DNA from: Escherichia coli
GTDB lineage: Bacteria > Pseudomonadota > Gammaproteobacteria > Enterobacterales > Enterobacteriaceae
Reading direction: 5' to 3' (one strand)
Length of the DNA stretch: 64,000 nucleotides
NCBI RefSeq assembly: GCF_044647545.1
Contig: NZ_CP172818.1
Shown: piece after piece, positions 21,156 to 40,977 of the stretch
Layout of the letters: every line of letters begins with the position of its first letter
Position numbering within the stretch: position 1 is the first letter of the stretch
The notes under the pieces: generated by a model
The model's input: the letters and a program-made list of their open reading frames with translations, nothing else
Told to the model about the DNA's origin: nothing
Database searches by the model: none
Translations under genes and position numbers: made by a program

Positions 21156-22654
21156 CAGAAACGCTCCAGTTCAGGAAAAGGTAAATGACCGTGATGCACA
21201 TGCATGGCACCAAATTCAGCACAGCGGTGTAGCGTGGGAATGTTTTTCCCAGGGTTCAGCAAACCATCGGGGTCAAACGCCGCCTTGACCGCATGGAAGG
21301 TCGTGATTTCATCGCTGTTGAACTGGGCGCACATTTGATTGATTTTTTCTCGCCCGATGCCATGTTCGCCACTGATGCTGCCGCCAACTTCAACGCAGAG
21401 TTCGAGGATCTTCCCGCCCAGCTCTTCCGCGCGGGCAAATTCACCGGGTTCGTTGGCATCGAAAAGGATTAACGGGTGCATGTTGCCATCTCCGGCATGA
21501 AAGACGTTGGCAACACGTAAATCATATTGCTGCGATAAACGGGCAATGCCTTCCAGTACGCCAGGCAGGGCGCGACGCGGGATGGTGCCATCCATGCAGT
21601 AGTAATCCGGGGAGATACGTCCTACCGCCGGGAACGCATTTTTGCGACCGGCCCAGAAACGTACGCGCTCTGCTTCGTCCTGTGCCAGACGGACGTCAGT
21701 CGCGCCCGCTTTCAACAAGATGTCGTTAACCCGCTCGCAGTCTTCCTGTACGTCAGACTCCACGCCGTCCAGCTCGCATAACAAAATCGCTTCGGCGTCG
21801 ACGGGATAACCGGCATGAATAAAATCTTCCGCCGCGCGGATCGACAGGTTATCCATCATCTCCAGCCCGCCGGGGATAATGCCATTGGCGATGATGTCAC
21901 CAACCGCAAGTCCGGCTTTTTCTACCGAGTCAAAGCTGGCTAACAGAACCCGCGCCACGGGCGGCTTCGGCAGCAGTTTTACCGTCACTTCGGTGGTCAC
22001 GCCGAGCATACCTTCCGATCCGGTGAACAGCGCCAGCAGGTCAAAACCAGGTGAATCCAGCGCGTCCGATCCAAGCGTCAGTGCCTCGCCGTCCAGCGTT
22101 TGCACTTCAATTTTCAGCAGGTTATGTACGGTCAGACCATATTTCAGGCAGTGGACGCCGCCGGCATTTTCAGCCACATTGCCGCCAATGGAACAGGCGA
22201 TTTGTGAGGAAGGGTCCGGTGCGTAGTAGAGATTATGCGGTGCAACGGCCTGGGAGATCGCCAGGTTACGCACGCCTGGCTGCACGCGCGCGCGGCGACC
22301 AACGGGGTTAATGTCGAGGATCTCTTTAAAGCGCGCCATCACCAACAACACACCTTTTTCCAGCGGCAGCGCGCCACCAGAAAGCCCGGTGCCTGCACCA
22401 CGGGTCACCACCGGTACACGCAGGCGATGGCAGACAGCCAGAATCGCTGTCACCTGTTCCATTTGCTTAGGCAGAACAACCAGTAATGGACGCGTGCGAT
22501 ACGCGCTCAACCCGTCACACTCGTAAGGAATGATCTCCTCATCGGTATGCAGGATCTCAAGTCCAGGGACATGCTCACGCAGTGCCATCAGTACCGATGT
22601 GCGGTCGACATCGGGTAAAGCGCCATCAAGACGCTCTTCGTACAAGATGCTCAT
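21155..22654 (-). CDS. glcD: Glycolate oxidase subunit GlcD (FAD-linked oxidase), 499 aa
   Basis: ORF track 499 aa beginning MSILYEERLDGALPDVDRT... Confidence 0.95.
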   Translation of the reverse strand: MSILYEERLDGALPDVDRTSVLMALREHVPGLEILHTDEEIIPYECDGLSAYRTRPLLVVLPKQMEQVTAILAVCHRLRVPVVTRGAGTGLSGGALPLEKGVLLVMARFKEILDINPVGRRARVQPGVRNLAISQAVAPHNLYYAPDPSSQIACSIGGNVAENAGGVHCLKYGLTVHNLLKIEVQTLDGEALTLGSDALDSPGFDLLALFTGSEGMLGVTTEVTVKLLPKPPVARVLLASFDSVEKAGLAVGDIIANGIIPGGLEMMDNLSIRAAEDFIHAGYPVDAEAILLCELDGVESDVQEDCERVNDILLKAGATDVRLAQDEAERVRFWAGRKNAFPAVGRISPDYYCMDGTIPRRALPGVLEGIARLSQQYDLRVANVFHAGDGNMHPLILFDANEPGEFARAEELGGKILELCVEVGGSISGEHGIGREKINQMCAQFNSDEITTFHAVKAAFDPDGLLNPGKNIPTLHRCAEFGAMHVHHGHLPFPELERF

Positions 22655-22904
22655 GAGTAGGCTTCGCTTTGTTGTGTTGTGTGGCAGCTGATTTTTGCGC
22701 GCTGCTTCTGTGAACAGTTATTAAGCGGGCTTTTCGTTTTCGTCTATCTCTTTAGCTACCGGTCAGACCATTTTTTTTCCAGCTCTGTGACCTTGTCTTG
22801 GTTAACTCAATGTTAAATTGATGTAACATAATCACTTACGTGATGTGCGTGTTTTGCGAGTTAAGAACAGAAAAATTGGTCCTACCTGTGCACGAGGTCC
22901 GGGA
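22655..22904. promoter_or_regulatory. Divergent glcC / glcDEFGBA promoter-operator region
   Basis: 250-bp intergenic region between divergently transcribed glcD and glcC; established site of GlcC-dependent activation; individual sites not resolved here. Confidence 0.5.
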
Positions 22905-23669
22905 ATGAAAGATGAACGTCGCCCTATTTGCGAAGTGGTTGCAGAGAGTATCGAACGGTTAATTATCGACGGCGTACTGAAGGTCGGTCAGCCGCTTCCC
23001 TCGGAACGTCGACTGTGTGAAAAGCTCGGCTTCTCACGCTCCGCACTGCGTGAAGGGCTGACCGTGCTGCGCGGGCGCGGGATTATTGAAACGGCGCAGG
23101 GTCGCGATTCTCGTGTCGCACGGCTTAATCGGGTGCAGGACACCAGCCCGCTGATCCATCTGTTCAGTACGCAGCCGCGAACGCTGTACGATCTGCTCGA
23201 CGTTCGCGCATTACTGGAGGGCGAATCGGCAAGGCTGGCGGCAACGCTGGGAACGCAGGCTGATTTTGTTGTGATAACCCGCTGTTATGAAAAAATGCTC
23301 GCCGCCAGTGAGAACAACAAAGAGATTTCGCTGATCGAACATGCGCAGTTGGATCACGCTTTCCATCTCGCCATTTGTCAGGCTTCTCACAATCAGGTGC
23401 TGGTGTTTACGCTGCAATCATTGACCGATCTGATGTTTAATTCAGTGTTTGCCAGCGTAAATAATCTCTACCATCGACCACAGCAAAAAAAGCAGATCGA
23501 TCGCCAGCATGCGCGGATCTACAACGCGGTGTTGCAGCGGCTGCCGCACGTCGCCCAGCGCGCAGCACGCGATCATGTGCGGACCGTGAAAAAGAATCTC
23601 CACGATATCGAGCTGGAAGGCCACCATTTGATTCGCTCGGCGGTGCCGCTGGAGATGAACCTGAGTTAG
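22905..23669 (+). CDS. glcC: GntR/FadR-family transcriptional activator of the glc operon, 254 aa
   Basis: ORF track 22845..23669; native start at the Met giving MKDERRPICEVVAESIERL... with N-terminal winged-helix region. Confidence 0.93.
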   Translation: MKDERRPICEVVAESIERLIIDGVLKVGQPLPSERRLCEKLGFSRSALREGLTVLRGRGIIETAQGRDSRVARLNRVQDTSPLIHLFSTQPRTLYDLLDVRALLEGESARLAATLGTQADFVVITRCYEKMLAASENNKEISLIEHAQLDHAFHLAICQASHNQVLVFTLQSLTDLMFNSVFASVNNLYHRPQQKKQIDRQHARIYNAVLQRLPHVAQRAARDHVRTVKKNLHDIELEGHHLIRSAVPLEMNLS

Positions 23670-23675
23670 CTGGTA

Positions 23676-24950
23676 TTAAATCTGCTTTTCATACAATCGG
23701 TAACGCTTGTACGGCTCCGCCCCAATGCGTTCCAGCATGTTATTCATGCCTGTATTGGTTTCGAGGATCCATGACATCTCCAGCGCATCGATCTTCCGGC
23801 GGGCAAACGGATCGCGTAAGGCTTCAATCAATAACAGCGCAATCACCGGGCCGATGCGGCTGAACTGATACTCGTCGCGCACGCCCATCAGCGGTACTCG
23901 CGCAGTTCGCACACCGCTGACTTTCAAACGCCACAGCAATTTTGCCCAGCCGAAGGGAAAGAGCGATCCGTTCAGATCGGCAATCGCCTCGTTGATGTTC
24001 GGCAAGCCGACAATAAACGCGCAGGGTGCAGAATCAATCTCAGCGATATAGATCATATCGTCCGGCACCAGATATTTAAGTTGATCGCCCATGGTCGCGA
24101 ATTCATGTTCGGTAAACGGCACAAATCCCCAGTTGTGCTGCCAGCCAGAGTTGAAAATCTCACGCAGGATCTGCATCTCTTCGGCAAACCGCTGACGATT
24201 GATGCAGCGAATGGTCACCTTTTTGCGCACCTGATCCATCAGTTTTTTTAGCGCCGGAGAGAAAGTGAGATCGGTTCGCTGCATCCACCACGCCAGTAAA
24301 TCAATGCCTTTGTGATAACCCAGTTGTTCAATATGCGCGGCATACCACGGTTTGCCGTGTGGCATCATCGCACAGGGTGGTGTGTCAAAACCTTCAATCA
24401 GTAATCCGCTTTCCTGATTGATATTCAGGCTGAAAGGACCGCTGATCTTACTTGCACCTTGTGACTTCAACCACGCTTCCGCTGCGCCAAACAACGCGGC
24501 AAAAACCTGCGGATCATCAATGGCGTCAATCATGCCGAAATGACCGGTATCTTTGCCGTAACGCTCGCGGTGCAAGGTATCTATTTGCGCGGTAATACGC
24601 CCAACTATCTGCCCCGCTTTTTTTGCCACCCACGCCTGCCAGATGATATGGTCCGTCCCCGGATTTTTCGCAGACAAATGCTCGTTGCGTTCAATGAATA
24701 AAGGGGGTATCCAGTTTGGATCGTCGGGATAAAGTGATGACGGAAAAGCGATAAATGCCTTAAGGTCATTTTTATTAAAGACGTCGCGAAACTGAAGACA
24801 ACCGGAAATTAACTTAAAACACTCCGAACGAATTTTATAATAAAAAACGATCGCGTCATACCGAAACAATACGATTCGTAAGTTTTTTTCCATATCCTTA
24901 TCGCGTCCCTCATTCAATCGTTTTAAGCCAGGATCCCTGGTTAACGGCAA
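23676..24950 (-). CDS. yghO: YghO (GNAT-like acyltransferase fold protein); 5' end uncertain
   Basis: 424-aa ORF convergent with glcC; its start abuts the anomalous block; I recall yghO being a pseudogene interrupted by IS5 in K-12, and no IS5 is present here. Confidence 0.7.
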   Translation of the reverse strand: MPLTRDPGLKRLNEGRDKDMEKNLRIVLFRYDAIVFYYKIRSECFKLISGCLQFRDVFNKNDLKAFIAFPSSLYPDDPNWIPPLFIERNEHLSAKNPGTDHIIWQAWVAKKAGQIVGRITAQIDTLHRERYGKDTGHFGMIDAIDDPQVFAALFGAAEAWLKSQGASKISGPFSLNINQESGLLIEGFDTPPCAMMPHGKPWYAAHIEQLGYHKGIDLLAWWMQRTDLTFSPALKKLMDQVRKKVTIRCINRQRFAEEMQILREIFNSGWQHNWGFVPFTEHEFATMGDQLKYLVPDDMIYIAEIDSAPCAFIVGLPNINEAIADLNGSLFPFGWAKLLWRLKVSGVRTARVPLMGVRDEYQFSRIGPVIALLLIEALRDPFARRKIDALEMSWILETNTGMNNMLERIGAEPYKRYRLYEKQI

Positions 24951-24989
24951 TACGAACGATTCCTCACGTCCATTCGAACGATATCCCTA

Positions 24990-25500
24990 CCTCCATACAC
25001 CTCCCACACCCTTTCCGGCTCATTATCACCCACCGAAGAGGCTAATCACGTCTATAACACGACGGCATTAAATTACCCGCGACCGCATCGCTCCTCTACC
25101 ATGAAGGGACGGTCGGCTTGACCCCCCCACGCACCATAGATTACGCACCAATCACTCCCCAAGCTTAAAGACATAAAAACCGGCACCTCCCCCGCCCATG
25201 AATTTCCACGCCCTGAATGAAAGAAATCCCTGAACTGGATCTTTCTCTGCGCGTCGCGGTATTTCAGAACCCATCTCCAGAACAGACTCTATCAATTTGC
25301 CATGCCCCACATTAACTATGATCATTCAACCCACGCATACAACGAATACATTTTAACCACCCTTTTAACATACCAACCGATTCCTCCACTCCACCGAAAA
25401 TTATACGCCTACCTCCATACACCCCCACACCGTTTCCCGTCATTACACCCACCGAACACCGAACACTCTATAACACACGCATTAAATACCCCCGACCCCT
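24990..25500. repeat. C/A-rich non-coding segment with two imperfect ~100-bp direct repeats (about 24990-25090 and 25408-25500)
   Basis: CTACCTCCATACACC..CCCACACC..TTTCC..TCATTA.CACCCACCGAA...TCTATAACAC..CATTAAAT..ACCC occurs twice at roughly 80 percent identity by eye; no ORF support. Confidence 0.4.
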
Positions 25501-26024
25501 CTCCCCTTTCACCAATAATTCGGCTTTCTCCTGACCCCCCCACCACATAATTACATAATTTACTCCAATTAAAATCATAAAAAATCCGGCATTTCTCCTC
25601 TATGAATCCACTAATAAAAAATCTAATGGATCTCCCCTTACAAACACCCAAACAACCATCAATAATTTATTAAACAAACTCAACACAAAAATTCACTTTT
25701 ATGAACTCTTAACGAATATCCACACCAAACAGTAAACCCCTCAAACACGCCTATCGATTTTCCGTCAAGTAAAACTTTTGAACAGATTGAAAATCCGCAG
25801 TGAAGCATATCCGGCGCGGCGGAATTTAGTGCAGATGCTTCATCACTCCTCTCAACCTTTAACGAAATCCAATCTCAAATCAGTAAACCTCCCCGGTCAA
25901 AACGCCTATCACTTCTCAACTGCGGCAAAGCTGGAAATTATTAAATCCAGCACTGTGAGCGGTGTATGCCTTGGCGGAACAGTTTCGGTAAGCCACCTCA
26001 TCTCCGGTCCGTCTATGACTTACT

Positions 26025-26426
26025 TTGGCGACCAGTTCGCAAGCAATTGCCGCGACGGGCTGGTTAGACACCGGCGACCTCGGTTATCTGCTGGACGGTT
26101 ATCTGTATGTCACCGGACGCATTAAAGATCTGATTATTATTCGTGGCCGTAATATCTGGCCGCAGGATATTGAATATATAGCGGAACAGGAACCGGAAAT
26201 TCATTCTGGCGATGCGATTGCTTTTGTTACCGCCCAGGAAAAAATCATTTTGCAGATCCAGTGTCGGATCAGCGACGAAGAACGTCGCGGGCAGGTTTCC
26301 CACCCCGCACGCGGCCAAAATGAAAATGGAGTTACCCCTGCTAGCGATTTTCGATCTCTCCACACCACACCCTTTTACGGCCCCTCCAACCCCACCCGTG
26401 CGCAAGCGGAAACACGTAAACATTAG
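26025..26426 (+). pseudogene. Fragment of a fatty acyl-AMP ligase / adenylate-forming enzyme (C-terminal subdomain only)
   Basis: ORF translation contains WLDTGDLGYLLDGYLYVTGRIKDLIIIRGRNIWPQDIEYIAEQEPEI, matching the conserved TGDLG...TGRxKDLIIxRGxNxYPQDIE motif of FAAL/acyl-CoA synthetases; the N-terminal ~450 aa of such enzymes is absent. Confidence 0.55.
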
Positions 26427-26558
26427 CGTAGGCTTCTAGTCTCAATGTTCATGAACCCCAATCATTAATCAAACTGACACTGTGACGGTGGCGAGCGGTA
26501 CTAGCTTTAAAGGTATTAATATTATAACCTGCTCGCCCGCGGCTTTCACGTTCGCGCA

Positions 26559-26840
26559 TTGACGCGTACTGCCCGCGCTCACGTCAATGATAATCTCCCC
26601 TCGGTGGGGGGTTGGCTGCAGGATACTCATTCACTTAGCGAGCTGGTTGCCGGAGCCAGCGTAGTGGTCCATTGCGCCGGGCAAGTGCGCGGGACAAGCA
26701 CCACGCTAATCGACCAGTCTAACCTTACCAAGCACCAAAGAGAGCTGCTAGCGCCAACGGTGTCCGTTTTTTTCTACCCTTTTCTCTTTCTATCTTCAGT
26801 TCCCCCGTACCCAAACGCGCTATACTGCTCTGAGCAATGA
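26559..26840 (+). pseudogene. Possible NAD(P)-binding (SDR/epimerase-like) fragment
   Basis: Short ORF with ...LVAGASVVVHCAGQVRG... resembling a Rossmann-fold motif; weak. Confidence 0.2.
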
Positions 26841-27764
26841 CAATCAGTAATGGCGGACCAAATGACGCTGGTGGTGGACCACCTTACAGTCGGCGTTTTT
26901 CCCGCGAAAAAAGTGTTTAAACCCCGCGTTGACGGGATGAAACCCCTCTTTCTGTGACTACTTGGCGCCCTACAGACACAGCTTTCTTTGCCGGATATCA
27001 CCCTTTTTTTTCAGCAGGTGACCAATTAAGCCGGAGAAGCGCCTCAATGATACAGACGCAAAAATACAAGCAAACCTATGAATTATGCGATGGCGTCGCC
27101 GGCGGCTATGACTGGCAACGCGTACAGCAACTTGCCGCCGACGCCCGTTGCGGTTCCCTGGATGGTGTTCATTGCCGGTACTCACCGGCCTTGCGGATAT
27201 CAGTACCGCGTTGAGTCGCCTGGCAGGTAAAGAACCTATGCTCTACCCGTCGAAAATTCGTGAATTAACCCACGCTACCTTTCGTCAACTTCTAACCCTG
27301 TTGTTGAAGATAGTTAGCCTGGTCCCCGGATTACCCAGCAAGACGTATTACTTAACTTGTTTTTTGGTCTGTCACGTTTATATGTTTAATAATGTAATAA
27401 TAATAAATTGTAAAATTTCCTTTTTACAGGATTTTGTCGATATAGTGTAGTTATTCCGAAAGAGGGGGATCTCGTAAGCGCTATAGCCATTGCGTCGATG
27501 AACGTGCTGGGACTCTTTCTAATGGTTGGAGCCCGTAACGATGTTTCCATACCGATTCATATTTTGATGGCTATTAATACCCCTGCGGATGTCATAACCA
27601 CTGTGCTATCATGGGTGGCGCTTCTATCATGGGGCTATAAGGTAGATGTGCGCGACTAGCTAGAGGGCGACTGCGCTTTCGAGCCACCGCATTTTAGCCA
27701 TTACGGGTTACTCACCTGTTTATGATGTTTATTTCCGCCACCGAAGGCCGGATCGGCAATAAAA

Positions 27765-28259
27765 ATGATATCTGGCCGGGACCGATTTTTCGGTTTTGTA
27801 ACCTTTAATCATGATGCCATAGGCGAAGGTCAGGCCGCGTTAGCGGCCCAAGGTACCGGCACCACCGGTTCTCGTATGGCAAACGGCAGTTATGCGCCGC
27901 ACCTGGCGTTAGAGAAAGAGATTGCCGAGTTTTTCAATCGCCCTACCGCTATCGTTTTTTCAACCGGTTATACCGCTAATTTAGGCGTCATCAGCGCACT
28001 TGCCGACCATAACGCCGTGGTGTTACTGGATGCCGACAGCCACGCCAGTATTTATGACGCCTGTTCTCTCGGTGGCGCGGAAATTATTCGTTTCCGCCAT
28101 AACGATGCTAAAGATCTGGAACGGCGGATGGTTCGCCCCGGTGAACGGGCGAAAGAGGCGATTATCATCGTTGAGGGTATCTACAGCATGCTCGGTGACG
28201 TTGCGCCGTTAGCGGAAATTGTTGATAAACATCTGCGTGTGGGTGATTTTTGTTTCTAG
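27765..28259 (+). pseudogene. Fragment of an alpha-oxoamine synthase (BioF/KBL/serine palmitoyltransferase family, PLP-dependent)
   Basis: ORF translation GSRMANGSYAPHLALEKEIAEFFNRPTAIVFSTGYTANLGVISALADHNAVVLLDADSHASIYDACSLGGAEIIRFRHNDAKDLERRM...IIIVEGIYSMLGDVAPLAEIV matches the conserved N-terminal/middle part of AOS enzymes; the region with the catalytic lysine is missing. Confidence 0.6.
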
Positions 28260-28423
28260 TAAGGCCCTTTGGTTTGCGTTGTAGGCGGAAAGGGGGGGCG
28301 AACTGCTTAAACTTGTCGGGGTTGAGGTTATTGTGATTTTTATCGTCGGCACCTTCAGTAAGTCTCTCCCCTAGTTTCGCTTTTTTTGTCTGGTTTCGAA
28401 AGAGGTAAAAGTGGTGCGATGCC

Positions 28424-28468
28424 ACCCCCCCCCATATTTTTTTCCCCCCTCTCTTTCCCCCCCCTCGA
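28424..28468. repeat. Homopolymer-rich low-complexity tract (poly-C, poly-T)
   Basis: GCCACCCCCCCCCATATTTTTTTTCCCCCCTCTCTTTCCCCCCCC; atypical for E. coli. Confidence 0.6.
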
Positions 28469-28918
28469 CGCGCCCGTGCCGTTAACAATGAGCGCCATAC
28501 CACCAGAGCCGGGGCAAAAGCTGATGGAGAAGGATAATCACCTGTATCACTGTGTCGATATACAAGGATTGGATTTTAGGTTACATATAAGTATTAGAGT
28601 GCTGGTAATAATCATAATCAAATAGGACGGGGTACGTATCCGGCTCTAGCGTGTGTTTCTTTCGTTGATCTTTTATGTGCATCTTATCCTCCCCCCTGCC
28701 GGGCATCACGCCGTCGCGCTGTACCCTAAAGCGTGCACACTGCTGAGAGTAGACAAATCGATGCCATCATTCAGGCATTTGCTACTCTGAAGCAGTAATG
28801 TGAGCCCGCCGTGGTGTTGCGCCACGGCGGGTTTAATGTGTTGTGTGATATCACTTACACCAGGCTCAACGCCACCAGCACAAACGCTATCGGTAAACCG
28901 AGCGCGGTAACAGGTGCG

Positions 28919-29997
28919 TCACGCAAATAGCAATCCCAGATTGACCATGATTTGATAGCTGATCCAGGTGAGTAAGCCAACGATGACACCTACAGCGAGA
29001 CGGCTACCCATCCCTCGGGAGCGCGGGGCGCTAAAAATAAACTGGACAGCCAGGAAAAATAACCCCAGGGGTAGGAATGGTTTCCCCAGTTTTTCCAACA
29101 TGGCAAGGCGTTATCCGTGGTGGGTTGCCCCGTTTCCTGGCAATTATGGGAGTTATGGATTAAGTGGAGGGACGGAAAATATATTCCCCCGTCGTTATAA
29201 CTTTTCAATTTTTATACGTGTAAAGCGCTTGCCCGGGGCAATTTTATGATATTTTCCGAGTGTTTTTGCGCCTCTCCCCTATTTTTTCTTTCACTATTAC
29301 ACCATGCAGGATCCACGTTTTGTCGTCTTCAATGGTGGCACTGCGTGCATAAATGTAGGATTCGAGCGAAAGATTACCACGAGATTGTAATATCTCTCCG
29401 CCCACAGGGGCTCCCCGTGCTTGTTGCGCGTTTACCGCGACAAATTTTCTACCCCGCCCCTCCCACAGCGCATTTTGGGGGTAGTGACCTCCTCCCCCCC
29501 ACGGCGCTGGCAGTCGATTTGATTTGCAGCGCCTGTTGCTGCAATGGCGACGCCACCCACTCATCTATCGCGCCTAACGAAACAGTCCACAATATCCCGG
29601 CAACCAGCGCCACCAGTGCAATACGGAAGATAGAAAACCCAGTGCTGCGAATGGCGGTAAGCTCACTGTTTTTCGATAACTGCCCCAGGCCAACAATCCC
29701 TCCCAATAATGCGATAAACGGCGAAAGTTCGACCAGTGTACGCGGTAAGGTCATCAGCACCACCAGCACCGCCTGAGTCCAGCGATAACCGCCCGGGCTG
29801 ACATCATCCAGTTCGTTAATCAGGTTGAAGGTGGTAAAAAGCGGCAGCAATAGCCCTGCGGCGGCGGCAAAACCGAGAAAGAGATGACGGATTAAATAGC
29901 GACTGAAAACGTTCTTCGGGAAAATTTCTGGAGCAAAGAGAAGTCGCGTGCGACCAGCATCAGCAGGCCCATTAGCATGAGTCCGGGTACTAACCAC
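28919..29997 (-). pseudogene. LptF/LptG-family (YjgP/YjgQ) permease homolog, fragmented (N-terminal and C-terminal pieces in different frames)
   Basis: ORF 29449..29997 has FSRYLIRHLFLGF...LPRTLVELSPFIALLGGIVGLGQLSKNSELTAIRSTGFS, an LptG-like N-terminus; ORF 28919..29101 resembles the C-terminal TM segments; frames are broken. Confidence 0.45.
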
Positions 29998-30981
29998 AAA
30001 CCAGGAAGGATGGGGACGCGTTTGCGCCCGTTAGCGCACTCGGCAGACGTCGCCGCCATAAAAAATGGCAATAAACAGCAACGTCAGTGGCAATAACGTT
30101 GTAAAATCGCCCTTGCCGCGGTTTTACCCGACTTAATGAAATGGCCAGCAGCGCCATCAACAATGCGGTCAGGCCACGGCTTTGTCGCCATTGCAGTTCG
30201 GCATGATCGGCAGGAAAGGCGGAGCGCGCCAGCTCCGTGACCGATTTTGCTTTGCGTTTGACGTTAGGGCTTTGATCCAGCGGATTCAGATGTAATTGCA
30301 GATTACGGTAGATCTGTTCGTTGTCGTCACGCCCCTGATGATCGAGAAGATAGGCGGTGCCATTCAACAAAATGATCGTTGGTTAGTTGAGTGGTCAACC
30401 ACACCAATCGAACGGACGCGGGAAAAACGTGTGCGATCGGTAGGAGAAGGATAAATCAGTGCGTGAGTCAGTCGAGCATTTATTTTATTAACCGACCGTC
30501 AAAGGAACATTCGTTCGTTAGTTTTCGTTTGTATTTTATTTCTTCCCCAACAAGTGGAGATCCACCAGCTACGGCTACGGCTGTTCCAGCCGATAAAAAT
30601 TCTGAGAATCCCACGGCCGACGATCCAACGACGGAAGGGGGATAAAAATACTTATTGGTATTATCAGAAAATGAAGGGCGGCTTTCAACCGTCGCCCAGG
30701 GCCCCCCCCGAGAGAGAGCTGGAGGTTATTAGCGGGTAGATATCCGTCCGACCGAGAGTCCAACCGACAGATACATACCGACAGGCAAGTACATCCCCAT
30801 CGCGAGCAGTACGCTGTATGTAACGATCGCTATCCCGAACATCAAGAGCTAAGGTCCCATTTGCCGCTTCGGTCAGATAACGCTGTGCGGAGTAGCTGGC
30901 GAAAATAAAGATCAGAAAACCGACGATAATCAGCACCAGACGGCGCGTACCACGCATGATGTAGTGTTCAACCAGCTTCAT
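29990..30981 (-). pseudogene. Second LptF/LptG-family permease homolog, fragmented (tandem with the downstream copy)
   Basis: ORF 30685..30981 starts MKLVEHYIMRGTRRLVLIIVGFLIFIF (LptF-like N-terminus); ORF 29990..30370 has AELQWRQSRGLTALLMALLAISLSRVKPRQGRF matching the conserved NPRQGR region; frames are broken. Confidence 0.45.
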
Positions 30982-31011
30982 CTCACTAACACCCTCAATC
31001 CTTTGAATTTT

Positions 31012-31573
31012 TTATTCATTGATCAGTTTCTGCGCCAGCGCAATGACATGATCTACCTCTTCCGGCGTCAGGCTGCCGTCCTTTGCCCACTGAATTTGCC
31101 CGTCTTTATTCAGCACCAGAATGGTTGAACTCTGCTCCGGCAACCGCCAGGCAACGCGTCCCAGTCCATTGCCGTCAATAACGAATTGCGCCCACGGATA
31201 GCGGCGTTTATTTTTTTCGATTTTGCCAACGACAAAATAGCCAGTACCAAAGATGGCATCATCGGTGTTCACAATGGTGGTGGGCTGAAAACGATCCTGC
31301 GGAAAGTTTGCCGCTTCAACCGCTTTAATTAACAGTGGCTTTTTTTTTTTCGCGGCCACTCACCCGGCGCTATATTCGGTATAACGCGGTTTTCCCCCGC
31401 GATGTGTGCTGTTCCCCACTTTGTGGTGTGTATTGTCGTCGCTCTATTCAGAAGGATCGCCCCGTTCCTGGGTATTAAACGGGGGTAACCGTTTTGCCAG
31501 TGACAAAATTGTGTGCCTGCACACCCTGGGCTAAGAGCATGATAATCAGCGCAATAATCAAACGAGATGACAT
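31012..31573 (-). pseudogene. YtfJ-family periplasmic protein homolog, frameshifted near a poly-T/poly-A tract
   Basis: C-terminal ORF 31012..31359 has ...TTIVNTDDAIFGTGYFV...YPWAQFVIDGNGL...LVLNKDGQIQWAKDGSLTPEEV matching E. coli YtfJ as I recall it; a signal-peptide-like N-terminus MSSRLIIALIIMLLAQGVQAHNF begins at 31573 in another frame; total span fits a ~185-aa protein. Confidence 0.55.
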
Positions 31574-32675
31574 CATTGCTCCGGTTATAGCGGAAAACGC
31601 GAAATCAGCAGCTCTAAGCGCTGGCGAATATCGCTATCCAGCGCCACCGGTGCATTATACGACCGGGCGGTTTTCCTAATAATCCCCACCATTGTGGCCG
31701 TGTTTTCCCCCATCAGGCCATTAATGGCGGCGAGGAAGCGGGAAATCTTTTATTGCTTTTGTTTATCAAGCGATCTTAAGGTGTCGTAATAAGAAACCTG
31801 CTGACTGATGATTTTTCGCACATCATGAAATTCCCTGCCGGTTAGTCGCGGTTTGGCAATTATCTTTTCATGTGAATTATTTTTTTTCGATAAAAATAAA
31901 AAAACTTCCGATTTTTGAATTGGTAAGGCTTAATGAAAATTCCACCAAGGACAAGACCGAAAAGTTTAATAAAACCCTAAACAATTTCCCTTAAACCAAC
32001 CCATTATTTTCTTTACCTTTAGGAAAACCTCCTGGAAACGGCCCCAAAAAAACGTCCTTTTTCCGGTAAAAAAATCCCCTCTTATTTGATAGTAAATACA
32101 GCCAATGCACAAAATTCAGGCGCTTTCAGCTCTCTTTTATGATTTTATTGTTCATCCGCAGTAAGATTCACCTCATTGCCTTTTTTCTGTTTTCATAGTA
32201 AACGCACCAACTCATTGAGATTAATGAGACTGAGTTAGAAGTGTAGCCAGTACTTGTAATTAATAATATGATTGGGTAAATATAATGTAATGCTAGACGC
32301 CACACTAAACTGACCAGCGCCGCCATCATATTATTCTACTCAACCGAAACAAAGATACCTCCCCTCGCGCGAAAAATGTAATATTTTCTTTATGATTACT
32401 ATTCCGCTCCGTTATCAAGATAAAGAAAGGAATGGCGCTGAAAAAATGCCGTCAAGGTTGGAGAGAACGAGAGCACCAGATATAGACAACCGCCATCGAA
32501 AAAAGCAAATCCCACCCCGACACGCAAACAACTACAAACAGATGAACAGCAATACGAAACTATACCGATGATGTCATGTTTCGCCACGATTGAGGCGATG
32601 GTTTCCCACGAAAAACCCTTTTTCCCCATCATACAATACTCCTGTGGGAAAAGCGCGCTGTTCCCCGCATCGAAA

Positions 32676-33791
32676 TCAAAGACTCCGGGAACCACATCGA
32701 AATACAATTGCGCCCAGCATCACCTGAATCAGGTCATACGCTTCGAGATACTTAACGCCAAACACCAGCGCAATAAGCGGCTTGCCGACGATCAACACCG
32801 CGAGCGCCACCAGAATACCGATTCCGCCCGCCAGTAAACCTGACTTCACGCCTAACAACCACGGTCTGGTGGTGCGCGGATCTAAACGCATCACCTCTGG
32901 GTAAAAACTTTTGCCCAGTAAACCCGCTGGCGTTCCGGCGGCGTCGAAGAATGTCATGGCGATTTTAAATAACCCGGCGGCAGCGGGTCCTAACACGATC
33001 CCCACCAGCACTGTGCTGCACGAGTTACGCGCCGACCAGATGGAGTGGGCAATGTTGGTTGACCAGACAAAACTCCACGCGCCTTTAATGTGTCGGGCAG
33101 ACTCAAACAGATTCAATTTGAAGGCGTTATGGATATTTCTGCGGCGTAATTCGCGCGCGGCAAACCACCAGTACATGGTGCCGCCAACCAGATTCGACAC
33201 GTACCAGGCAATAACAAAACCCGCAAAACCAAAGTCAAAATACCAGGCTACGACGCTCCCCGCTGCGCGCAGAAAAGGTTTCGTCGCTTGCTGTACAGCA
33301 ATTAGATCGAAGCGATCTACCGCACGCAGAATGCCGGTCGGCGTGGAGGAAGCCATTGAAGGAATGAGCGTGCAATACAGCGCTGCCAGCCAAAAGCTTT
33401 GGTCATCCAGACCTAATGAATGGGAAAGAAAAGGGAGTAAGGCAATGCCGCCGACAATCGCCACCGCGCCGCTGACGATATCCAGCGAGAAGGAAAATGA
33501 GACGACATTGCGAAATTGCTGCGGATTATTGTTGGTCAAGGCTGGCGTTCCGTACTGCACCACCAACTGCCATGTCTGAAACTTAATAAAATCGCTGATC
33601 GACTTGGCGTACGATTGCACAATCACCAGTACGCCAAACATGGCGGGCGTCATCCCTTTACCGGCACACGAGAGCGCCAACAGACCCAGTAAAGCGCTCA
33701 CGACATTACTGGAGCCTAACCAGGCGCTATTGCGAATAATGGTGCGAAACGCGCCATCTGCAAACCAATGTTTGATGTTAAAACCCGCCAA
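32676..33791 (-). CDS. yghQ: Polysaccharide-transporter/flippase-like inner membrane protein YghQ; 3' end possibly disturbed
   Basis: 371-aa polytopic membrane ORF; its C-terminus borders the anomalous block, and a further out-of-frame ORF follows at 32399..32707. Confidence 0.85.
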   Translation of the reverse strand: MAGFNIKHWFADGAFRTIIRNSAWLGSSNVVSALLGLLALSCAGKGMTPAMFGVLVIVQSYAKSISDFIKFQTWQLVVQYGTPALTNNNPQQFRNVVSFSFSLDIVSGAVAIVGGIALLPFLSHSLGLDDQSFWLAALYCTLIPSMASSTPTGILRAVDRFDLIAVQQATKPFLRAAGSVVAWYFDFGFAGFVIAWYVSNLVGGTMYWWFAARELRRRNIHNAFKLNLFESARHIKGAWSFVWSTNIAHSIWSARNSCSTVLVGIVLGPAAAGLFKIAMTFFDAAGTPAGLLGKSFYPEVMRLDPRTTRPWLLGVKSGLLAGGIGILVALAVLIVGKPLIALVFGVKYLEAYDLIQVMLGAIVFRCGSRSL

Positions 33792-33836
33792 TTCAGCCTG
33801 ACCTTATCGTTGATAGTAAAAAGTATCCCGCCAGCC

Positions 33837-34595
33837 TTAAGTTAAACTTCGGCGGTCAGAAACGATGGCAACCAGAGAAACCGCCTTCTGTGCCTGTTCC
33901 AGCACTTCGCTGTAAGGCGCTCTGGAATCAATCTCAAGAATTTTTGTGCCGTTATAGCCAATCTTCGACATGACGCCGATTTTGTCCTGCAATTCGGCAT
34001 AGTCATGGTCAGGCTTGCGGGAAATGGCAGTATCAATATCAATCCCCAAACGAATGATTAATTCAGGACGGTATTGCGCCATTTGTTGGTATAAACGCCG
34101 TTCGCGCTGCGCCAGAAACATGCTGATTTTCCCGGTCGCACGTTCGACGCCGATCCCCGGTCCGTCATAATAAAAGCCCGAAATTTCAGCCTGCGGGAAG
34201 CGATCGCTGACCACCAGAACGCCACTTTGCGCCAGTCGCTGAACCTTGCGTAGATTCGCCATTCTTCGCAGCGAGAAGCAGTACATAATCACCGCCGCCC
34301 ATAGCGCTGGAGATTTGGTTTTCATGCTTTGGGTTTTCGATGATTTGGCCGCCAGTCGCCGTTCGAGCCAGACGCCAACCAACGGCAATCGTTTGATTTT
34401 GTCGCCGTCTTCGCCCGAGAGCAGCCCCAGATAGCGGCGCTCGGTTTGCCAGTGTTGTTGCAGCGATTTCACCAGATCGGTGGTCAGTGTGGATTTACCG
34501 GTACCATCACACCCGACCACCGCAATCAGCCCCGGAATGTAGTTGGGCTGCGGCGCGGTTGTACTATTAACAGTTTGTGTTTGTAGTGCGTCCAT
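33837..34595 (-). CDS. yghR: P-loop NTPase family protein YghR, 252 aa
   Basis: Walker A motif GCDGTGKST near the N-terminus; paralogous to yghS and yghT. Confidence 0.9.
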   Translation of the reverse strand: MDALQTQTVNSTTAPQPNYIPGLIAVVGCDGTGKSTLTTDLVKSLQQHWQTERRYLGLLSGEDGDKIKRLPLVGVWLERRLAAKSSKTQSMKTKSPALWAAVIMYCFSLRRMANLRKVQRLAQSGVLVVSDRFPQAEISGFYYDGPGIGVERATGKISMFLAQRERRLYQQMAQYRPELIIRLGIDIDTAISRKPDHDYAELQDKIGVMSKIGYNGTKILEIDSRAPYSEVLEQAQKAVSLVAIVSDRRSLT

Positions 34596-34626
34596 TCGTT
34601 AAATCATCCCCTATCCATTTTGGTGA

Positions 34627-35340
34627 TCAGGAAAGCGCAGCGTGAATTGCGCGTAGTGACGCTTGCAGAATTTCATCGGCTGGTTGCCGACCATCCAGTT
34701 CAAGGATCTTTGCGCCATTGAATGTCAGTTGCGGCGTAACGGCGATTTTTTCCTGTAACGCTGCCAGTTGGTGGTCAGGTTTACGCGCAAACGCGGTTTG
34801 TTCATCAATGCCAAGACGAATCAACAATACGGGCAAATAAGACGCCATCCATTGGTACAGCTTCAGCTCGCGCTGCCTTAACATTTTTATCCAACCGTTA
34901 CCGCCCGTGGTTTTTGCCAATTGCGGGCCATCAAAGCGAAAACCCGGCACTTCAACCTGCGGGTAGCGGTCGGTGATGAGCAGGTAGCCTTGCTGGCTTT
35001 TACACAACATTTTGCGAAACTTGTACGCCCGCCAGCAGGAAAGCAGATAGATAACCAGCGCAGTCATATTGCCAGGCGGTGTGGAGGGCTTTTCGTGCAC
35101 ATGTGCCGCTTTACTTCGCAGATAACGCCCAAAAGGTGCGCCAATAACAGGGAGCTGTGAAATCCATTCGCCAATTCGCCCGGACGATTGCCCGAGATAA
35201 ATGTGTTCTGTTGGCATTGTTGCTGCCAGTTCATTTACCAGGCTTGCCGTGAGGGTCGATTTACCTGAACCATCACATCCTACAATGGCAATAACACGCA
35301 CTGGCGTGGAATTAATTATTGACATATTACGTTGATTCAC
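34627..35340 (-). CDS. yghS: P-loop NTPase family protein YghS, 237 aa
   Basis: Walker A motif GCDGSGKST; paralog of YghR. Confidence 0.9.
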   Translation of the reverse strand: MNQRNMSIINSTPVRVIAIVGCDGSGKSTLTASLVNELAATMPTEHIYLGQSSGRIGEWISQLPVIGAPFGRYLRSKAAHVHEKPSTPPGNMTALVIYLLSCWRAYKFRKMLCKSQQGYLLITDRYPQVEVPGFRFDGPQLAKTTGGNGWIKMLRQRELKLYQWMASYLPVLLIRLGIDEQTAFARKPDHQLAALQEKIAVTPQLTFNGAKILELDGRQPADEILQASLRAIHAALS

Positions 35341-35514
35341 GAAAAACCCGGCAGCAAATAATGTATTGAATATTACGTGGTCCGTGCTCAGAATATCCGT
35401 TCAACCTTATTGTGACAATGGTTAATTGTGACATTGACCTGAATTACGCTTTCATCAAAAACATATTAACCAAATAAATATTTTGGATGGATATTTAAAT
35501 TTAAGGATATATTC

Positions 35515-36207
35515 ATGCAGTCAATAATACCTCCATTAATTGCCGTTATTGGTAGCGATGGTTCAGGCAAGTCAACGGTGTGTGAACATCTTATTACCGT
35601 TGTCGAAAAATATGGTGCTGCCGAAAGAGTTCATTTAGGAAAACAGGCCGGAAATGTCGGTCGTGCAGTGACAAAATTACCGTTGATGGGAAAATCCTTA
35701 CATAAAACAATTGAACGAAATCAGGTGAAAACAGCAAAAAAATTGCCTGGCCCTGTTCCGGCGCTGGTAATTACAGCGTTTGTCGCCCGTCGCTTACTGC
35801 GCTTTCGTCATATGCTTGCCTGTCGTCGTCGCGGGTTAATTGTTCTAACCGACCGTTATCCTCAGGACCAAATTCCTGGTGCTTACGATGGTACGGTGTT
35901 CCCACCTAACGTTGAAGGTGGTCGTTTTGTCTCATGGCTGGCAAGCCAGGAACGTAAAGCGTTTCACTGGATGGCGAGCCATAAGCCCGATCTGGTCATC
36001 AAACTCAATGTCGATCTGGACGTGGCCTGCGCGCGTAAGCCTGACCACAAAAGAGAATCGCTGGAAAGGAAGATAGCCATAACGCCACAGTTAACCTTTG
36101 GTGGTGCACAACTGGTTGATATCGATGCTAATCAGCCACTGGAAAAGGTGCTGGTTGATGCAGAAAAAGCGATTACGGATTTTATGACCGCGCGTGGTTA
36201 TCACTAG
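35515..36207 (+). CDS. yghT: P-loop NTPase family protein YghT, 230 aa
   Basis: Walker A motif GSDGSGKST; third paralog, divergently oriented. Confidence 0.9.
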
Positions 36208-36219
36208 TCAAAAATGGAA

Positions 36220-36248
36220 ATGCCCGATCGCCAGGACCGGGCATTTTC
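36220..36248. terminator. Bidirectional terminator between convergent yghT and pitB
   Basis: ATGCCCG...CGGGCAT inverted repeat followed by TTTT. Confidence 0.55.
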
Positions 36249-36255
36249 AGGAAGG

Positions 36256-37755
36256 TTAAATCAACTGCAATGCTATCCAGTACAACCCACCAGAAAGAAA
36301 AATCGCCGCCGGTAAAGTAAACACCCACGCCATCAGGATGCTGGTTACCGTTTTACGCTGTAACCCACCGCCGTCCACCACCATCGTCCCTGCTACTGCA
36401 GACGAGAGTACGTGTGTTGTGGAGACGGGCATCCCAATATAACTGGCAAGGCCGATAGACACTGCCGCCGTCATTTGTGCCGCCATGCCTTGCGCATACG
36501 TCATGCCGCGCTTACCAATCTTCTCACCGATGGTCATCGCTACACGACGCCAGCCAATCATGGTGCCGATGCCGAGCGCCAGTGCTACCGCCATGATGAT
36601 CCACACCGGTGCGTACTCAATGGTGCTTAACATATCGCTGCGCAGTTTTTTCAGCAGGTTCTGGTCTTCTTTACTGACGCCTGGCAGTTTCGCCAGCTTC
36701 GCGGAGGTATCAGAGATGCACAGCATAATGCGGCGCAGCTGGCTGCGCTGACTCACGCTTAACGGCTCGTAACTTTCCATATTGCCTGGCAGCATCGTTT
36801 TAACGCGCGCAATCGCATCAAAGGTATTTGCCGGATGACAGTGAAACTCTGTTACTTGCGTGCCATCAGTCGATGTCGCAGGCAATGGAGGTTCCATCGT
36901 AATCAACTTCTGCGGCAGTTCAGGATGCTGTTGCAGGTAGTGTTCGAAGTTGGTGACGGCATCGCGGGTACGGGTAATTTCATAGCCGGACGCGTTCATA
37001 TTGACGACGAAACCAGCAGGGGCAATCCCCACCAGTACCAGCATCACCAGGCCGATCCCTTTCTGCCCGTCGTTCGCGCCGTGCGAAAACGCCACGCCCG
37101 CAGCGGAAACAATCAGCGCAATACGCGTCCAGAATGGCGGCTTACGTTTGCCTTTTTTCTTTTTGCGATCTTCCGGAATGCGGTGAATACGGTCACGCTT
37201 TTTCGTCCCGCTCCAGAAACGGCGCAGCAGGAAAATCAGACCACCCGCAATGACCAGGCCGACGATAGGGGAAACAATCAGCGAGGAGAAAATTTTGGTC
37301 ACTTCACGCAGGTTTAACGCATCCATCACCGATGAGCCGGTTAACAGCGCGTTGGTTAAACCGATGCCGATAATCGCACCAATCAAGGTGTGCGAACTGG
37401 AGGCCGGTAAACCAAAGAACCACGTTCCCAGGTTCCAGATAATCGCCGCCAGCAGCATAGAAAAGACCATCGCCAGGCCGTGAGTTGACCCCATATTCAA
37501 CAACAAATCGGTTGGCAACATATGGACAATGGCATAGGCAACGCTAAGTCCGCCTAGCAATACGCCAAAAAAATTAAAAAATGCCGCCATCACCACAGCA
37601 AGTTGTGGTTGCATGGCACGAGTATAAATAACGGTTGCCACCGCATTCGCCGTGTCATGAAAACCATTGATTGCTTCGTAGAACAACACAAATGCCAGAG
37701 CAAGTAATAACAAAAGCCCTGTGTATATATCAAGGCCAACAAATAAATTTAGCAT
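36256..37755 (-). CDS. pitB: Low-affinity inorganic phosphate transporter PitB, 499 aa
   Basis: ORF track 499 aa polytopic membrane protein, PiT family. Confidence 0.95.
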
Positions 37756-37996
37756 ATATTAGATTACGCCATTTTGAATTTACGAACGGACGCATTATCA
37801 GTGACTTTAACGGCATGGGCAAAGTGAAATATCATTTTTTAACGATAAAAAGCGTGTTATTTCTTGTGTATCAGACAATAAGCATTCATTCAAAACCTTT
37901 AGAAATAATCAAAACACATGTATTCTGCTGGTTAATATATTCACATATAAAATGAATAAATATTGGAATATATAAATATTGAATGTTTTGATTAAT

Positions 37997-38031
37997 CCCC
38001 GTACTGATTATTCTTCATAATCAGTACGGGG
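37997..38031 (-). terminator. Putative terminator downstream of gss
   Basis: Inverted repeat CCCCGTACTGATTA...TAATCAGTACGGGG immediately 3' of the gss stop. Confidence 0.5.
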
Positions 38032-38046
38032 TTGCTACAACATGTA

Positions 38047-39906
38047 TTACTTTTTCACCACAATTAACGGTTCAATATCACTCTCTTTTTTGATGACCAG
38101 TGATTCATCACCGCGCAAACACGTCCCACCGTAGTTGCCGCCAACGGTGAAGGTACATACCTGAATGTATTTACCGTCCACTTTCGGCAAACACCACAGT
38201 TGCTGATAGATGTTTTTCTGCTCGGCAAATTTACCGCTGGTTTTGTCCAGCACCTCTTCATGATGGCTGACCAGGTCGATATTGCTACCACAGCGACCAG
38301 CGATCGGTTTCACTGCATAACCGGTTTTCACCAGTTCATCATTCACGGAGAAATCGGTATCCAGCAGGTAGCGATGGTGCGGGAACAGCGACCAGAGGAT
38401 CGGCAGAATCGCTTTGTTGCCGGGGATCACCGTCCACAGCGGCTCAAAGACCAGCACTTCCGGGCGCAGCAATACGTCGATAAGACGCACTTCATTTTGC
38501 GGATGACCGGTACGGATCGGCACCGCAGCAAACTCACGGTCGCTAACTTCACGAATCTGATCAAACGCCGTCTCCCACGCCCAGGTTTTCCACACGCAGT
38601 TAACCAGTCGCCCTTCCCCATCAATCAGTTGCCCGGCAGCATCCCAGCCCAGTTCATCCAGCCCACGCAAGATACGCGTTTCAAAGCCCGCCTGGTGCAG
38701 CGCCTGCTCCATAAACTGCGCGTGATAGTTTTCCTCGATATCTTTGTCCTGCATGATATGGACAAACGGACGTGCACGACTGTGTTTCCAGGCACCAGCC
38801 AGTTCGTTAATCAGTCCTTCCGCCGGATTGAAGCCGTTGCCTTTATAGCCCTGCTCCGCCCAACGTTCGAGGATCAAGCCCGCTTCGGTATGACAGGAGG
38901 CAGAATCGGCGTTGTATTCGTAGACTTTCAGGCCACGTTCGTCCATGCAGAAATCCATACGACCGGTGATCATATGGTGACGGCGACGCTGCCAGGAGAG
39001 ACGCAAACGTGGCCAGAGGATTTTCGGAATGTCGAACAGCGCCAGCAGGTTGTCATCTTTTAGCACCTTGTCGGTTGCGTGAAGATACATCAGGTGCAGC
39101 TCGTTGGTGGCTTTAATCAGCTCCTGCTCTGCGCTCTCGGTAATGGTGTAGTAATGATACGGATCCTGATTGATCACCTGACCGTTGGCCTGTACATAGG
39201 CGTTTTGCAGCGGATCTTTTTCATCCAGCCATTTACCGTCAAACTGGCCTTTGTTTTCCAGACGCGCCCCGCTGATTTTCAGCAGTTCGCCTGCAATTTC
39301 CGGCTGTGGCAAGCTGTATTCGGTATCTTCCGTCTGGATCATCCAGCCCAGAATAGTGGTGTCATCAAACGTGTCTTTAAGGGTATAGCCGCCGTTTTCG
39401 ACCACCATCTCCAGCTCGCGCGTCCACTGTTGCCCTTGCGGCAACGGGGAATGAATCACGTTCTGTTCCGCAATACGGACTTTGTTGCCATGCAATTGGG
39501 TAATGATGGCGACATGGCCAGTGTCTTTAAATTCACCGCCTTTATCCCAGATAAGAAGCGCACCCGCGACCGGCGCACGCGGCGAGCCGTTAGGAAATGC
39601 CTGCAATGGCAGGATGTTGTCATTGACCACTTCACGCAGGAAGCGCAGCGAGAAAATCTCCCACGCCATACCCACGTCAGTGAAGACCACACCGTAATTC
39701 AGAAAGAGAAAACGGCGAGCAAATTCAACGCATTGCCATTTGTGGCCCATATATTCGTCGTCGATATAGCTGCGGAATACGGCGTCATCTTCGTATTCCT
39801 GCGGATCGAGAGAACTGTAATCTGAAGAGTAGATTGCTACCCCACCTGGGGCGTAGCCCAATAATGTCCCGAACGGGGCATCCTGGCTGGTCGTTCCTTT
39901 GCTCAT
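38047..39906 (-). CDS. gss: Bifunctional glutathionylspermidine synthetase/amidase, 619 aa
   Basis: ORF track 38047..39909; start at the second Met giving MSKGTTSQDAPFGTLLGYAPGG... Confidence 0.95.
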   Translation of the reverse strand: MSKGTTSQDAPFGTLLGYAPGGVAIYSSDYSSLDPQEYEDDAVFRSYIDDEYMGHKWQCVEFARRFLFLNYGVVFTDVGMAWEIFSLRFLREVVNDNILPLQAFPNGSPRAPVAGALLIWDKGGEFKDTGHVAIITQLHGNKVRIAEQNVIHSPLPQGQQWTRELEMVVENGGYTLKDTFDDTTILGWMIQTEDTEYSLPQPEIAGELLKISGARLENKGQFDGKWLDEKDPLQNAYVQANGQVINQDPYHYYTITESAEQELIKATNELHLMYLHATDKVLKDDNLLALFDIPKILWPRLRLSWQRRRHHMITGRMDFCMDERGLKVYEYNADSASCHTEAGLILERWAEQGYKGNGFNPAEGLINELAGAWKHSRARPFVHIMQDKDIEENYHAQFMEQALHQAGFETRILRGLDELGWDAAGQLIDGEGRLVNCVWKTWAWETAFDQIREVSDREFAAVPIRTGHPQNEVRLIDVLLRPEVLVFEPLWTVIPGNKAILPILWSLFPHHRYLLDTDFSVNDELVKTGYAVKPIAGRCGSNIDLVSHHEEVLDKTSGKFAEQKNIYQQLWCLPKVDGKYIQVCTFTVGGNYGGTCLRGDESLVIKKESDIEPLIVVKK

Positions 39907-40110
39907 CACTTTACCTTTAACAATACAACCTAAGCAGTTGGCGTAATTGTTGTGCTCTGATTACCTGCTCAGCGACATTAACCGGACAGAGGTCAGACTA
40001 ATCATACACCTCATCGCAGCGGCTGGCGCAAAGGGTTAAAAAATTCACATTCTGTACAGCAAGTGACCTGCTACACTGCTTCAACACTACCACTCAGAAG
40101 GCAACTCACT

Positions 40111-40977
40111 ATGACAGACAATACTTATCAGCCCGCGAAAGTCTGGACGTGGGATAAATCCGCTGGCGGCGCGTTCGCCAATATCAATCGCCCGGTTTCT
40201 GGTCCGACGCATGAAAAAACGCTGCCGGTGGGCAAACATCCGCTGCAACTCTATTCGCTGGGAACGCCAAACGGACAGAAAGTAACGATTATGCTTGAGG
40301 AGCTGCTGGCGCTGGGCGTTACTGGTGCAGAGTACGACGCCTGGCTGATTCGTATTGGTGATGGCGATCAATTCTCCAGCGGCTTTGTCGAAGTGAACCC
40401 AAACTCGAAGATCCCGGCGCTGCGCGACCATACCCATAATCCACCGATCCGCGTGTTTGAGTCTGGATCGATTCTGCTTTATCTGGCGGAGAAATTTGGC
40501 TACTTCCTGCCGCAGGATCTGGCAAAACGGACTGAAACGCTGAACTGGCTGTTCTGGTTACAGGGCGCGGCACCGTTCCTCGGCGGTGGTTTTGGTCACT
40601 TTTACCATTACGCGCCGGTGAAAATTGAGTACGCCATCAACCGCTTTACCATGGAAGCCAAGCGCCTGCTCGACGTGCTGGATAAGCAACTGGCGCAGCA
40701 CAAGTTTGTTGCGGGCGATGAGTACACCATTGCGGATATGGCGATCTGGCCGTGGTTTGGCAACGTGGTGTTAGGCGGCGTGTATGATGCCGCAGAGTTT
40801 CTGGATGCGGGCAGTTATAAGCACGTGCAACGCTGGGCGAAAGAAGTGGGCGAACGTCCGGCGGTGAAGCGTGGGCGTATTGTTAACCGCACCAACGGGC
40901 CGCTGAACGAGCAGTTGCATGAGCGCCATGACGCCAGTGATTTTGAGACGAATACGGAAGATAAGCGTCAGGGGTAA
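40111..40977 (+). CDS. yghU: Glutathione transferase-like disulfide reductase YghU, 288 aa
   Basis: ORF track 40063..40977; native start at the Met giving MTDNTYQPAKVWTWDKSAGGAF... Confidence 0.93.
   Translation: MTDNTYQPAKVWTWDKSAGGAFANINRPVSGPTHEKTLPVGKHPLQLYSLGTPNGQKVTIMLEELLALGVTGAEYDAWLIRIGDGDQFSSGFVEVNPNSKIPALRDHTHNPPIRVFESGSILLYLAEKFGYFLPQDLAKRTETLNWLFWLQGAAPFLGGGFGHFYHYAPVKIEYAINRFTMEAKRLLDVLDKQLAQHKFVAGDEYTIADMAIWPWFGNVVLGGVYDAAEFLDAGSYKHVQRWAKEVGERPAVKRGRIVNRTNGPLNEQLHERHDASDFETNTEDKRQG

Follow-up and report, generated by a model that had tools for sequence, protein, structure and literature searches.

The locus described here is an annotated accessory gene cluster that is present across most Escherichia coli genomes. 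In real genomes, the first 13 codons of yghO are followed by a 409-bp intergenic region and by the genes for a fatty acyl-AMP ligase (FAAL; WP_001326490.1, AMP-binding domain PF00501), an NAD-dependent epimerase, an acyl carrier protein, a serine palmitoyltransferase (spt), an LptG-like and an LptF-like permease, a YtfJ-family protein and a hypothetical protein, after which comes the 3' end of yghQ. E. coli K-12 carries an IS5-associated deletion between yghO and yghQ, and the FAAL cluster is absent from it. A search of the literature on yghO and yghQ found nothing on repeats at this locus.

With the K-12 yghO-yghQ deletion, the locus examined here has its edges in common, but it is devoid of IS5 and contains a garbled form of the cluster that K-12 lost. 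False tandem duplications and unpolished gap-fills, as they are generally known from hybrid or reference-guided bacterial assemblies, resemble it in being local, bounded by reference breakpoints, deletion-biased and frame-broken, with perfect flanks. Poor agreement with a noisy-read channel is seen, however, in how many errors there are and of what types, in the expansion of homopolymers, in the skips over common words and in the k-mer reuse. Genomic language models have been described to show low-complexity collapse and recall-type behaviour, and Evo 2 generations collapse into homopolymer runs (bioRxiv 10.64898/2026.01.17.700093). The locus is like such degeneration in its blocks of verbatim recall, its loop-backs, its self-feeding drift in composition and its collapse into homopolymers and poly-A. 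It is unlike it in that the collapse covers tens of bases instead of kilobases and is recovered from, and in that the backbone is exact over tens of kb and is rejoined in register; it is a candidate member of this class.

The window (the whole stretch of 64,000 nt of E. coli DNA that was analysed) holds at 24960-25780 a stretch in which the 5' two-thirds of the E. coli FAAL gene are rendered in a corrupted and non-natural form. A preliminary description had reported imperfect, drifting direct repeats in it, and these are present well above background. A gapped local alignment joining the repeat seeds defined a degenerate direct repeat in which copy A (24907-25329) is paired with a copy B that starts at 25333 and extends, in this alignment, to 25914; 305 positions match, 42 mismatch and 113 are gapped, and the score of 146.5 compares with 50.3 +/- 5.2 in dinucleotide shuffles (z=18; highest shuffle score 69.5). 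The direct-repeat seeds obtained by repeat search are collinear, with a spacing of 404-426 nt (examples in Table 1), and the best-preserved core is formed by the ~100-bp units 24990-25090 and 25408-25500. These cores, which had been singled out before, are real, but the anomaly had been drawn too small: its full extent is 24779-32704, and two further places of the window show it again. A second, shorter stutter pairs 25680-25790 with 25820-25930 (score 36.5 versus a shuffle maximum of 27). Tandem Repeats Finder, applied to 24600-26200, returned just two trivial micro-repeats and did not detect copies A and B because the indels in them are too many.

The skewed composition was confirmed as well. 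Bases in 24960-25780 are 31.7% A, 35.2% C, 9.9% G and 23.3% T; G declines from 13.6% to 6.1% in the second half (25371-25780), and GC skew goes down to -0.77 in the G-poor region. The stretch had also been said to be intergenic and without coding signal. The former was not borne out, as it aligns to FAAL coding sequence, written about twice. The latter holds to the extent that all ORFs inside the stretch are at most 82 aa and that a Pfam search with five local ORFs of the window gave no family, but the DNA is a deletion-riddled rendering of a coding gene. Rfam covariance models gave no match in 24500-26200 at E<=1. Positions 24738-24753 / 25752-25767 form an inverted repeat of 16 nt (94% complementary). 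One arm belongs to the genuine coding part of yghO, the other to a slightly altered rendering of FAAL, and by our own estimate a repeat of this kind would occur in this span by chance in roughly 1 in 100 cases.

Copies A and B align in the same orientation to one FAAL piece of ~550-750 nt (z=43 and 19, respectively), and 24779-25915 can be assigned throughout to the coding part of FAAL, read in the direction of the gene. The alignment of 24779-26480 as a whole covers FAAL nt 82-1689. In what follows, L001 denotes coordinates on a sequence of the type of strain WP4-S18-ESBL-09 (WP4; see below) that carries the real yghO-FAAL cluster. Upstream of copy A, the head of the first pass scores 60 in local alignment with FAAL (shuffles 23.0 +/- 2.5, maximum 33), and a BLAST seed connects 24768-24819 with L001 10299-10354. 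The head is reached by a jump of 530 nt from yghO (L001 9779) to FAAL nt 82 across a common TTTTTAT..AGACGT word, and the first 81 nt of FAAL and the promoter region are skipped in the window. Copy A agrees with the real gene at 397 positions and departs from it by 20 mismatches, by 129 bases that are deleted and by 6 that are inserted (z=43.5), and its region gives ~68.8% BLAST matches to annotated FAAL in 4,102 genomes. Copy B is of poorer quality, with ~6% G and A/C-rich low complexity at 25640-25790. Alignment of 25333-25914 with L001 10622-11336 gave 462 matches, 51 mismatches, 202 deleted and 69 inserted bases (z=18.8), while 25647-25790 matched L001 11121-11376 with a score of 33 versus a shuffle maximum of 23.5. 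From 25916 (L001 11340) onward, the BLAST alignment is collinear and in register with the real gene. The reading frame of 25916-26480 is not intact, tblastn recovering FAAL residues 416-546 alone (77%). The longest FAAL-derived ORF on the gene strand amounts to 133 aa versus ~562 codons in the real frame, and the AMP-binding profile PF00501, which matches real FAAL with E = 9e-60, had no match among the window ORFs. Both nucleotide homology to FAAL and synteny beside yghO were found, with the chromosomal position, the orientation and the order of the genes as in the real cluster. Judged from these alignments, the drifting direct repeats are successive passes over one FAAL template.

Table 1 Features of the corrupted sequence and its surroundings (window positions; strand where assigned)
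Feature	Position	Strand	Description
yghO genuine part	23676-24778	-	Verbatim to 24778
Whole corrupted tract	24779-32704		7,926 nt standing for the real 8,370 nt from yghO start to yghQ 3' end
Head of first pass	24779-24906	+	FAAL nt 82-263 = L001 10310-10491, G dropouts
Copy A	24907-25329	+	423 nt rendering FAAL nt 406-951 = L001 10634-11179 (546 nt)
Copy B	25333-25790	+	FAAL nt 394-1148 = L001 10622-11376, after ~557-nt loop-back
Third pass	25797-25915	+	FAAL nt 960-1108 = L001 11188-11336, after ~190-nt loop-back
Rest of FAAL	25916-26480	+	In register; verbatim block 26046-26294 between blocks of 60-70% identity
Repeat seed pair	24977-25006 / 25399-25428		
Repeat seed pair	25003-25016 / 25424-25437		
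Repeat seed pair	25065-25078 / 25479-25492		
Repeat seed pair	25119-25130 / 25532-25543		
Verbatim islands in tract (among others)	27823-28126, 29508-29910, 30838-31337		
Garbled IS3-family element	40979-42031		1,053 nt for 1,500 real; K-12 breakpoints as bounds
Garbled ~1.57-kb strain-specific insertion	61008-62018		Lies between yqhH and ygiQ; two hypothetical genes

The dropouts in the two copies are base-specific and affect the written strand alone. Copy A has lost 0% of the real A, 10% of the C, 48% of the G and 36% of the T residues; in copy B these values are 3, 17, 63 and 29%, respectively, and of the real G residues 22% were kept and 15% substituted. The C/A-richness of the stretch is a consequence of this dropout of G and T. 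Such errors would not come from a mutational process acting on double-stranded DNA, since the deletion of G and T is confined to one strand. Copies A and B have 77 error states in common, and bases of the real gene are correct in one copy alone at 104 and 62 sites.

The whole of 24779-32704 is collinear with the WP4-S18-ESBL-09 chromosome (NZ_AP022098.1) and yet 60-90% identical to it. It is a mosaic: blocks of 60-500 nt are copied verbatim, and those in between are 60-70% identical. The substitutions in 25916-32704 comprise 313 transitions and 664 transversions (ts/tv 0.47), the poor blocks containing 977 substitutions versus 362 indel bases. A ts/tv of 0.47 is what substitution at random and without bias yields. 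The natural differences between the window and K-12 gave ts/tv counts of 555/269, 153/66, 145/42 and 61/17 (ratio 2-3.5). Over codon positions 1/2/3, the substitutions in the tract are distributed as 328/297/344, versus 21/8/99 and 8/0/42 for the differences between WP4 and K-12 in neighbouring genes. Where the DNA is 75-85% identical, the encoded proteins are 40-65% identical and frameshifted, and the reading frames are broken in all eight FAAL/spt/lptFG-like genes of the cluster (26000-32704). Acquisition of a foreign allele by recombination in the divergent blocks was considered and rejected, because the frames are broken and because the protein identity in the divergent part of spt (~33%) is what random substitution would give at ~70% DNA identity. 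Homopolymer runs (>=5) are present at 9.1 per kb in the tract and 4.4 per kb in its real counterpart. Local reuse of 8-mers amounts to 4.5% at the tract head versus 0.6% in the real sequence; simulated random noise lowers such reuse and does not raise it. On the yghO side, the ORF reaches 24950 and is 424 instead of 380 aa long, YghO residues 2-380 matching at 96.9% (tblastn). The N-terminal extension is spurious, because the true start and the region upstream of it are overwritten by garbled sequence.

The flanks of the tract are nearly or fully identical to NZ_AP022098.1: 6790-24778 has 1 difference in 17,990 nt (99.994% identity), 15000-24778 and 32705-40358 are 100.000% and 100% identical, respectively, and most of the remaining window is identical too. 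The left edge of the tract (24778/24779) coincides with the exact base at which K-12 switches to IS5; at the other end, 19 nt separate the last difference from position 32723, where homology to K-12 returns. All three garbled tracts of the window begin exactly at homology breakpoints between K-12 MG1655 and WP4, and they end there or within 20 nt. K-12 sequence as template or backbone was rejected, as none of it is present in the tracts: similarity of the tract head to the K-12 IS5 did not exceed chance (score 18 versus a shuffle mean of 20.2), and comparison of this IS5 and of the 114-nt hybG-yghU spacer with all three tracts gave chance-level similarity as well.

The other two tracts show the same pathology on unrelated DNA. 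The garbled IS3-family element starts with dropout of G, passes into junk of C, T and A homopolymers, is near-verbatim over ~400 nt and then shows substitutions toward C, A and G runs; its homopolymer runs amount to 22.8 per kb versus 6.7 in the real counterpart. The garbled insertion near the end of the window, with bounds exactly at K-12 homology breakpoints, collapses to poly-A runs of 20-45 nt. We know of no poly-A runs of such length in natural E. coli DNA. Local 8-mer reuse in this tract is 14% versus 1.9%, and the 5th percentile of its entropy is 0.75 bit. Across the tracts, the density of homopolymer runs exceeds that of the real sequences 2-5-fold, and the lengths of the three tracts, in the order of the window, are 95, 70 and 64% of those of the real segments. 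No natural counterpart of either of the two smaller tracts was found among complete E. coli genomes.

The garbled sequence at 24779-32704 had no match above ~85% in 5,426 complete E. coli genomes. When the region was compared with E. coli genomes using megablast and blastn, canonical FAAL at ~69% was the sole result. BLAST against a phage collection gave no match, and against a plasmid collection it retrieved the canonical E. coli FAAL gene alone. An exact 59-mer had no match in GTDB representative genomes and JGI metagenome contigs, which is weak evidence as these contain few E. coli draft assemblies. ORFs of 164 and 98 aa in the tract are not on record in a public gene-position index. Neither is the 331-aa GspC junction protein, a result that is weak since it depends on the start codon called. 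The absence from public data is consistent with a non-public or synthetic origin, although it is no proof of it.

According to the preliminary description, intergenic DNA native to E. coli is seldom of this kind, and an artefact was one possibility. Both remarks have stood up: with high confidence, the garbled sequence is a non-biological artefact. There is no new element, RNA or att site here. As to how it came about, the involvement of a generative model, i.e., an autoregressive neural generator or reconstructor, is the reading to which we incline with modest confidence. Repetition loops, low-complexity collapse and verbatim blocks alternating with unconstrained sequence, which would be expected of such a model, are all seen in the tracts. 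The window has a real backbone like that of WP4-S18-ESBL-09, reproduced verbatim, and faithful following of the template ends at 24779, where genomes of the K-12 type differ in layout. A skip of 530 nt into FAAL is followed by copying in which mainly G and T are dropped, by a loop-back of ~557 nt after which the same piece is recopied with worse fidelity, and by a further loop-back of ~190 nt. The rest of the cluster is then written as verbatim blocks interspersed with others that carry ~30-35% unconstrained substitutions, with a re-lock at 32705. On the generative reading, the writer would recall its template, lose it at ambiguous branch points of the pan-genome and recover once the context is unambiguous, and we infer that this ambiguity is the reason why the tract edges lie at K-12 breakpoints. 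The second pass would draw on the template and on the output of the first pass; the errors common to the copies and the self-reinforcing loss of G would then be explained by the writer reusing its own recent output. Against a generator it can be argued that a free-running model is not expected to reproduce the alleles of one lineage over tens of kb or to rejoin in register. The exactness of the backbone implies either that it is real sequence or that a model had memorised this genome or was conditioned on it. Moreover, deletion bias and in-register re-synchronisation are equally expected of gap-fills made from noisy reads.

The latter could have arisen in the assembly or consensus of a genome built from accurate reads under the guidance of a K-12-type reference, in which one or a few long reads of very high noise, or else a consensus that had failed, supplied the non-K-12 segments, with no more than partial polishing, and in which the false tandem repeat stems from unmerged, overlapping read ends of low quality. 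We regard this as a tentative alternative that is rather unlikely. It would account for the coincidence of tract edges with K-12 homology breakpoints, for the tracts being shorter than the real segments and rejoining real sequence in register, and for the mosaic of perfect and poor blocks, which is like partial polishing with short reads. It would also agree with the clean absence of gspD-K and the pheV island, both of which K-12 lacks, in spite of alleles of the WP4 type. The error profile is more difficult to reconcile with it. A read channel produces errors that are roughly uniform, indel-rich and homopolymer-compressing, whereas those in the tracts are deletion-biased, patchy and substitution-dominated, with homopolymers that are expanded, not compressed, and poly-A collapse over tens of bases. 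Blocks of 60-70% identity in which substitutions dominate, as the 977 versus 362 indel bases illustrate, are worse than, and different in kind from, a typical raw long read or a multi-read consensus. The 530-nt skip across a common word and the two loop-backs are untypical of read errors, local k-mer reuse is up where random noise would bring it down, and K-12 sequence is absent from the tracts.

Natural origins have far less to recommend them, and neither the decay of a pseudogene nor the scar of a mobile element is, for practical purposes, still an option. The 77 derived states that the copies have in common, together with their private changes, form the pattern of a duplication followed by divergence, and the cluster is dispensable, K-12 being without it; a tandem duplication within FAAL followed by decay of the whole accessory cluster is nevertheless very improbable. 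One difference in 17,990 nt of flank leaves no time for 20-40% decay, the ts/tv of 0.47 and the lack of codon-position bias contrast with natural ratios of 2-3.5 and a strong third-position bias, and the loss of G and T is strand-specific. Verbatim blocks of 250-500 nt lie between ruined ones, an IS element and an unrelated insertion are affected in the same way, and none of the 5,426 genomes contains the garbled sequence. That the stretch is a scar of a lost element, as had been proposed, a prophage attachment site, a non-coding repeat with a function or an RNA locus is more improbable still. The IS5-associated deletion of K-12 at this position and the inverted repeat that brackets the region could be taken to favour a scar, but this repeat has one arm in the ordinary coding part of yghO and the other in slightly altered FAAL, the FAAL gene explains the stretch from end to end, phages gave no match, the plasmid collection matched in FAAL alone, and similarity to IS5 is lacking, as is any Rfam family at E<=1 that would speak for an RNA. 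That the tracts are real DNA, made in a natural or engineered strain by an extreme, strand-asymmetric, G/T-deleting hypermutation with template slippage that struck non-K-12 segments and left the core untouched, is hardly credible.

In practice, ~10 kb of the window (24779-32704, 40979-42031 and 61008-62018) is untrustworthy sequence that should not be interpreted. The features to be discounted there include the broken lptF/lptG-like genes, the 'long' YghO, odd ORFs and the poly-A and homopolymer tracts; any call of a pseudogene or a novel small ORF in 26000-32704 would be an artefact. Tracts of this kind can be told from genuine divergence by a ts/tv near 0.5, a flat distribution over codon positions, strand-specific base dropout, a mosaic of verbatim and garbled blocks and raised local k-mer reuse, and detection of these signatures could be automated.

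Some further deviations were observed outside the garbled tracts. At 5284-6791, with the junction at 6789/6790, the window has a gspD-gspK deletion of the K-12 type together with a K-12-like pheV layout (no island). The alleles combined with this layout are of the WP4 type (99.93% identity to WP4, ~96-97% to K-12). No full-length match above 97.3% to positions 1-7000 of the window was present in 5,426 complete genomes, and the structural layout of this part may itself be unnatural. At 52903, a 5-bp deletion (ATCAT) relative to WP4 is located exactly at a K-12/WP4 breakpoint where K-12 has 240 additional bases; either a minor error like those of the tracts or a natural polymorphism may be the cause. 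The differences from WP4 at 9091 and 40359, a 1-bp deletion just outside sslE (by annotation offsets) and one mismatch, respectively, are probably ordinary strain variation.
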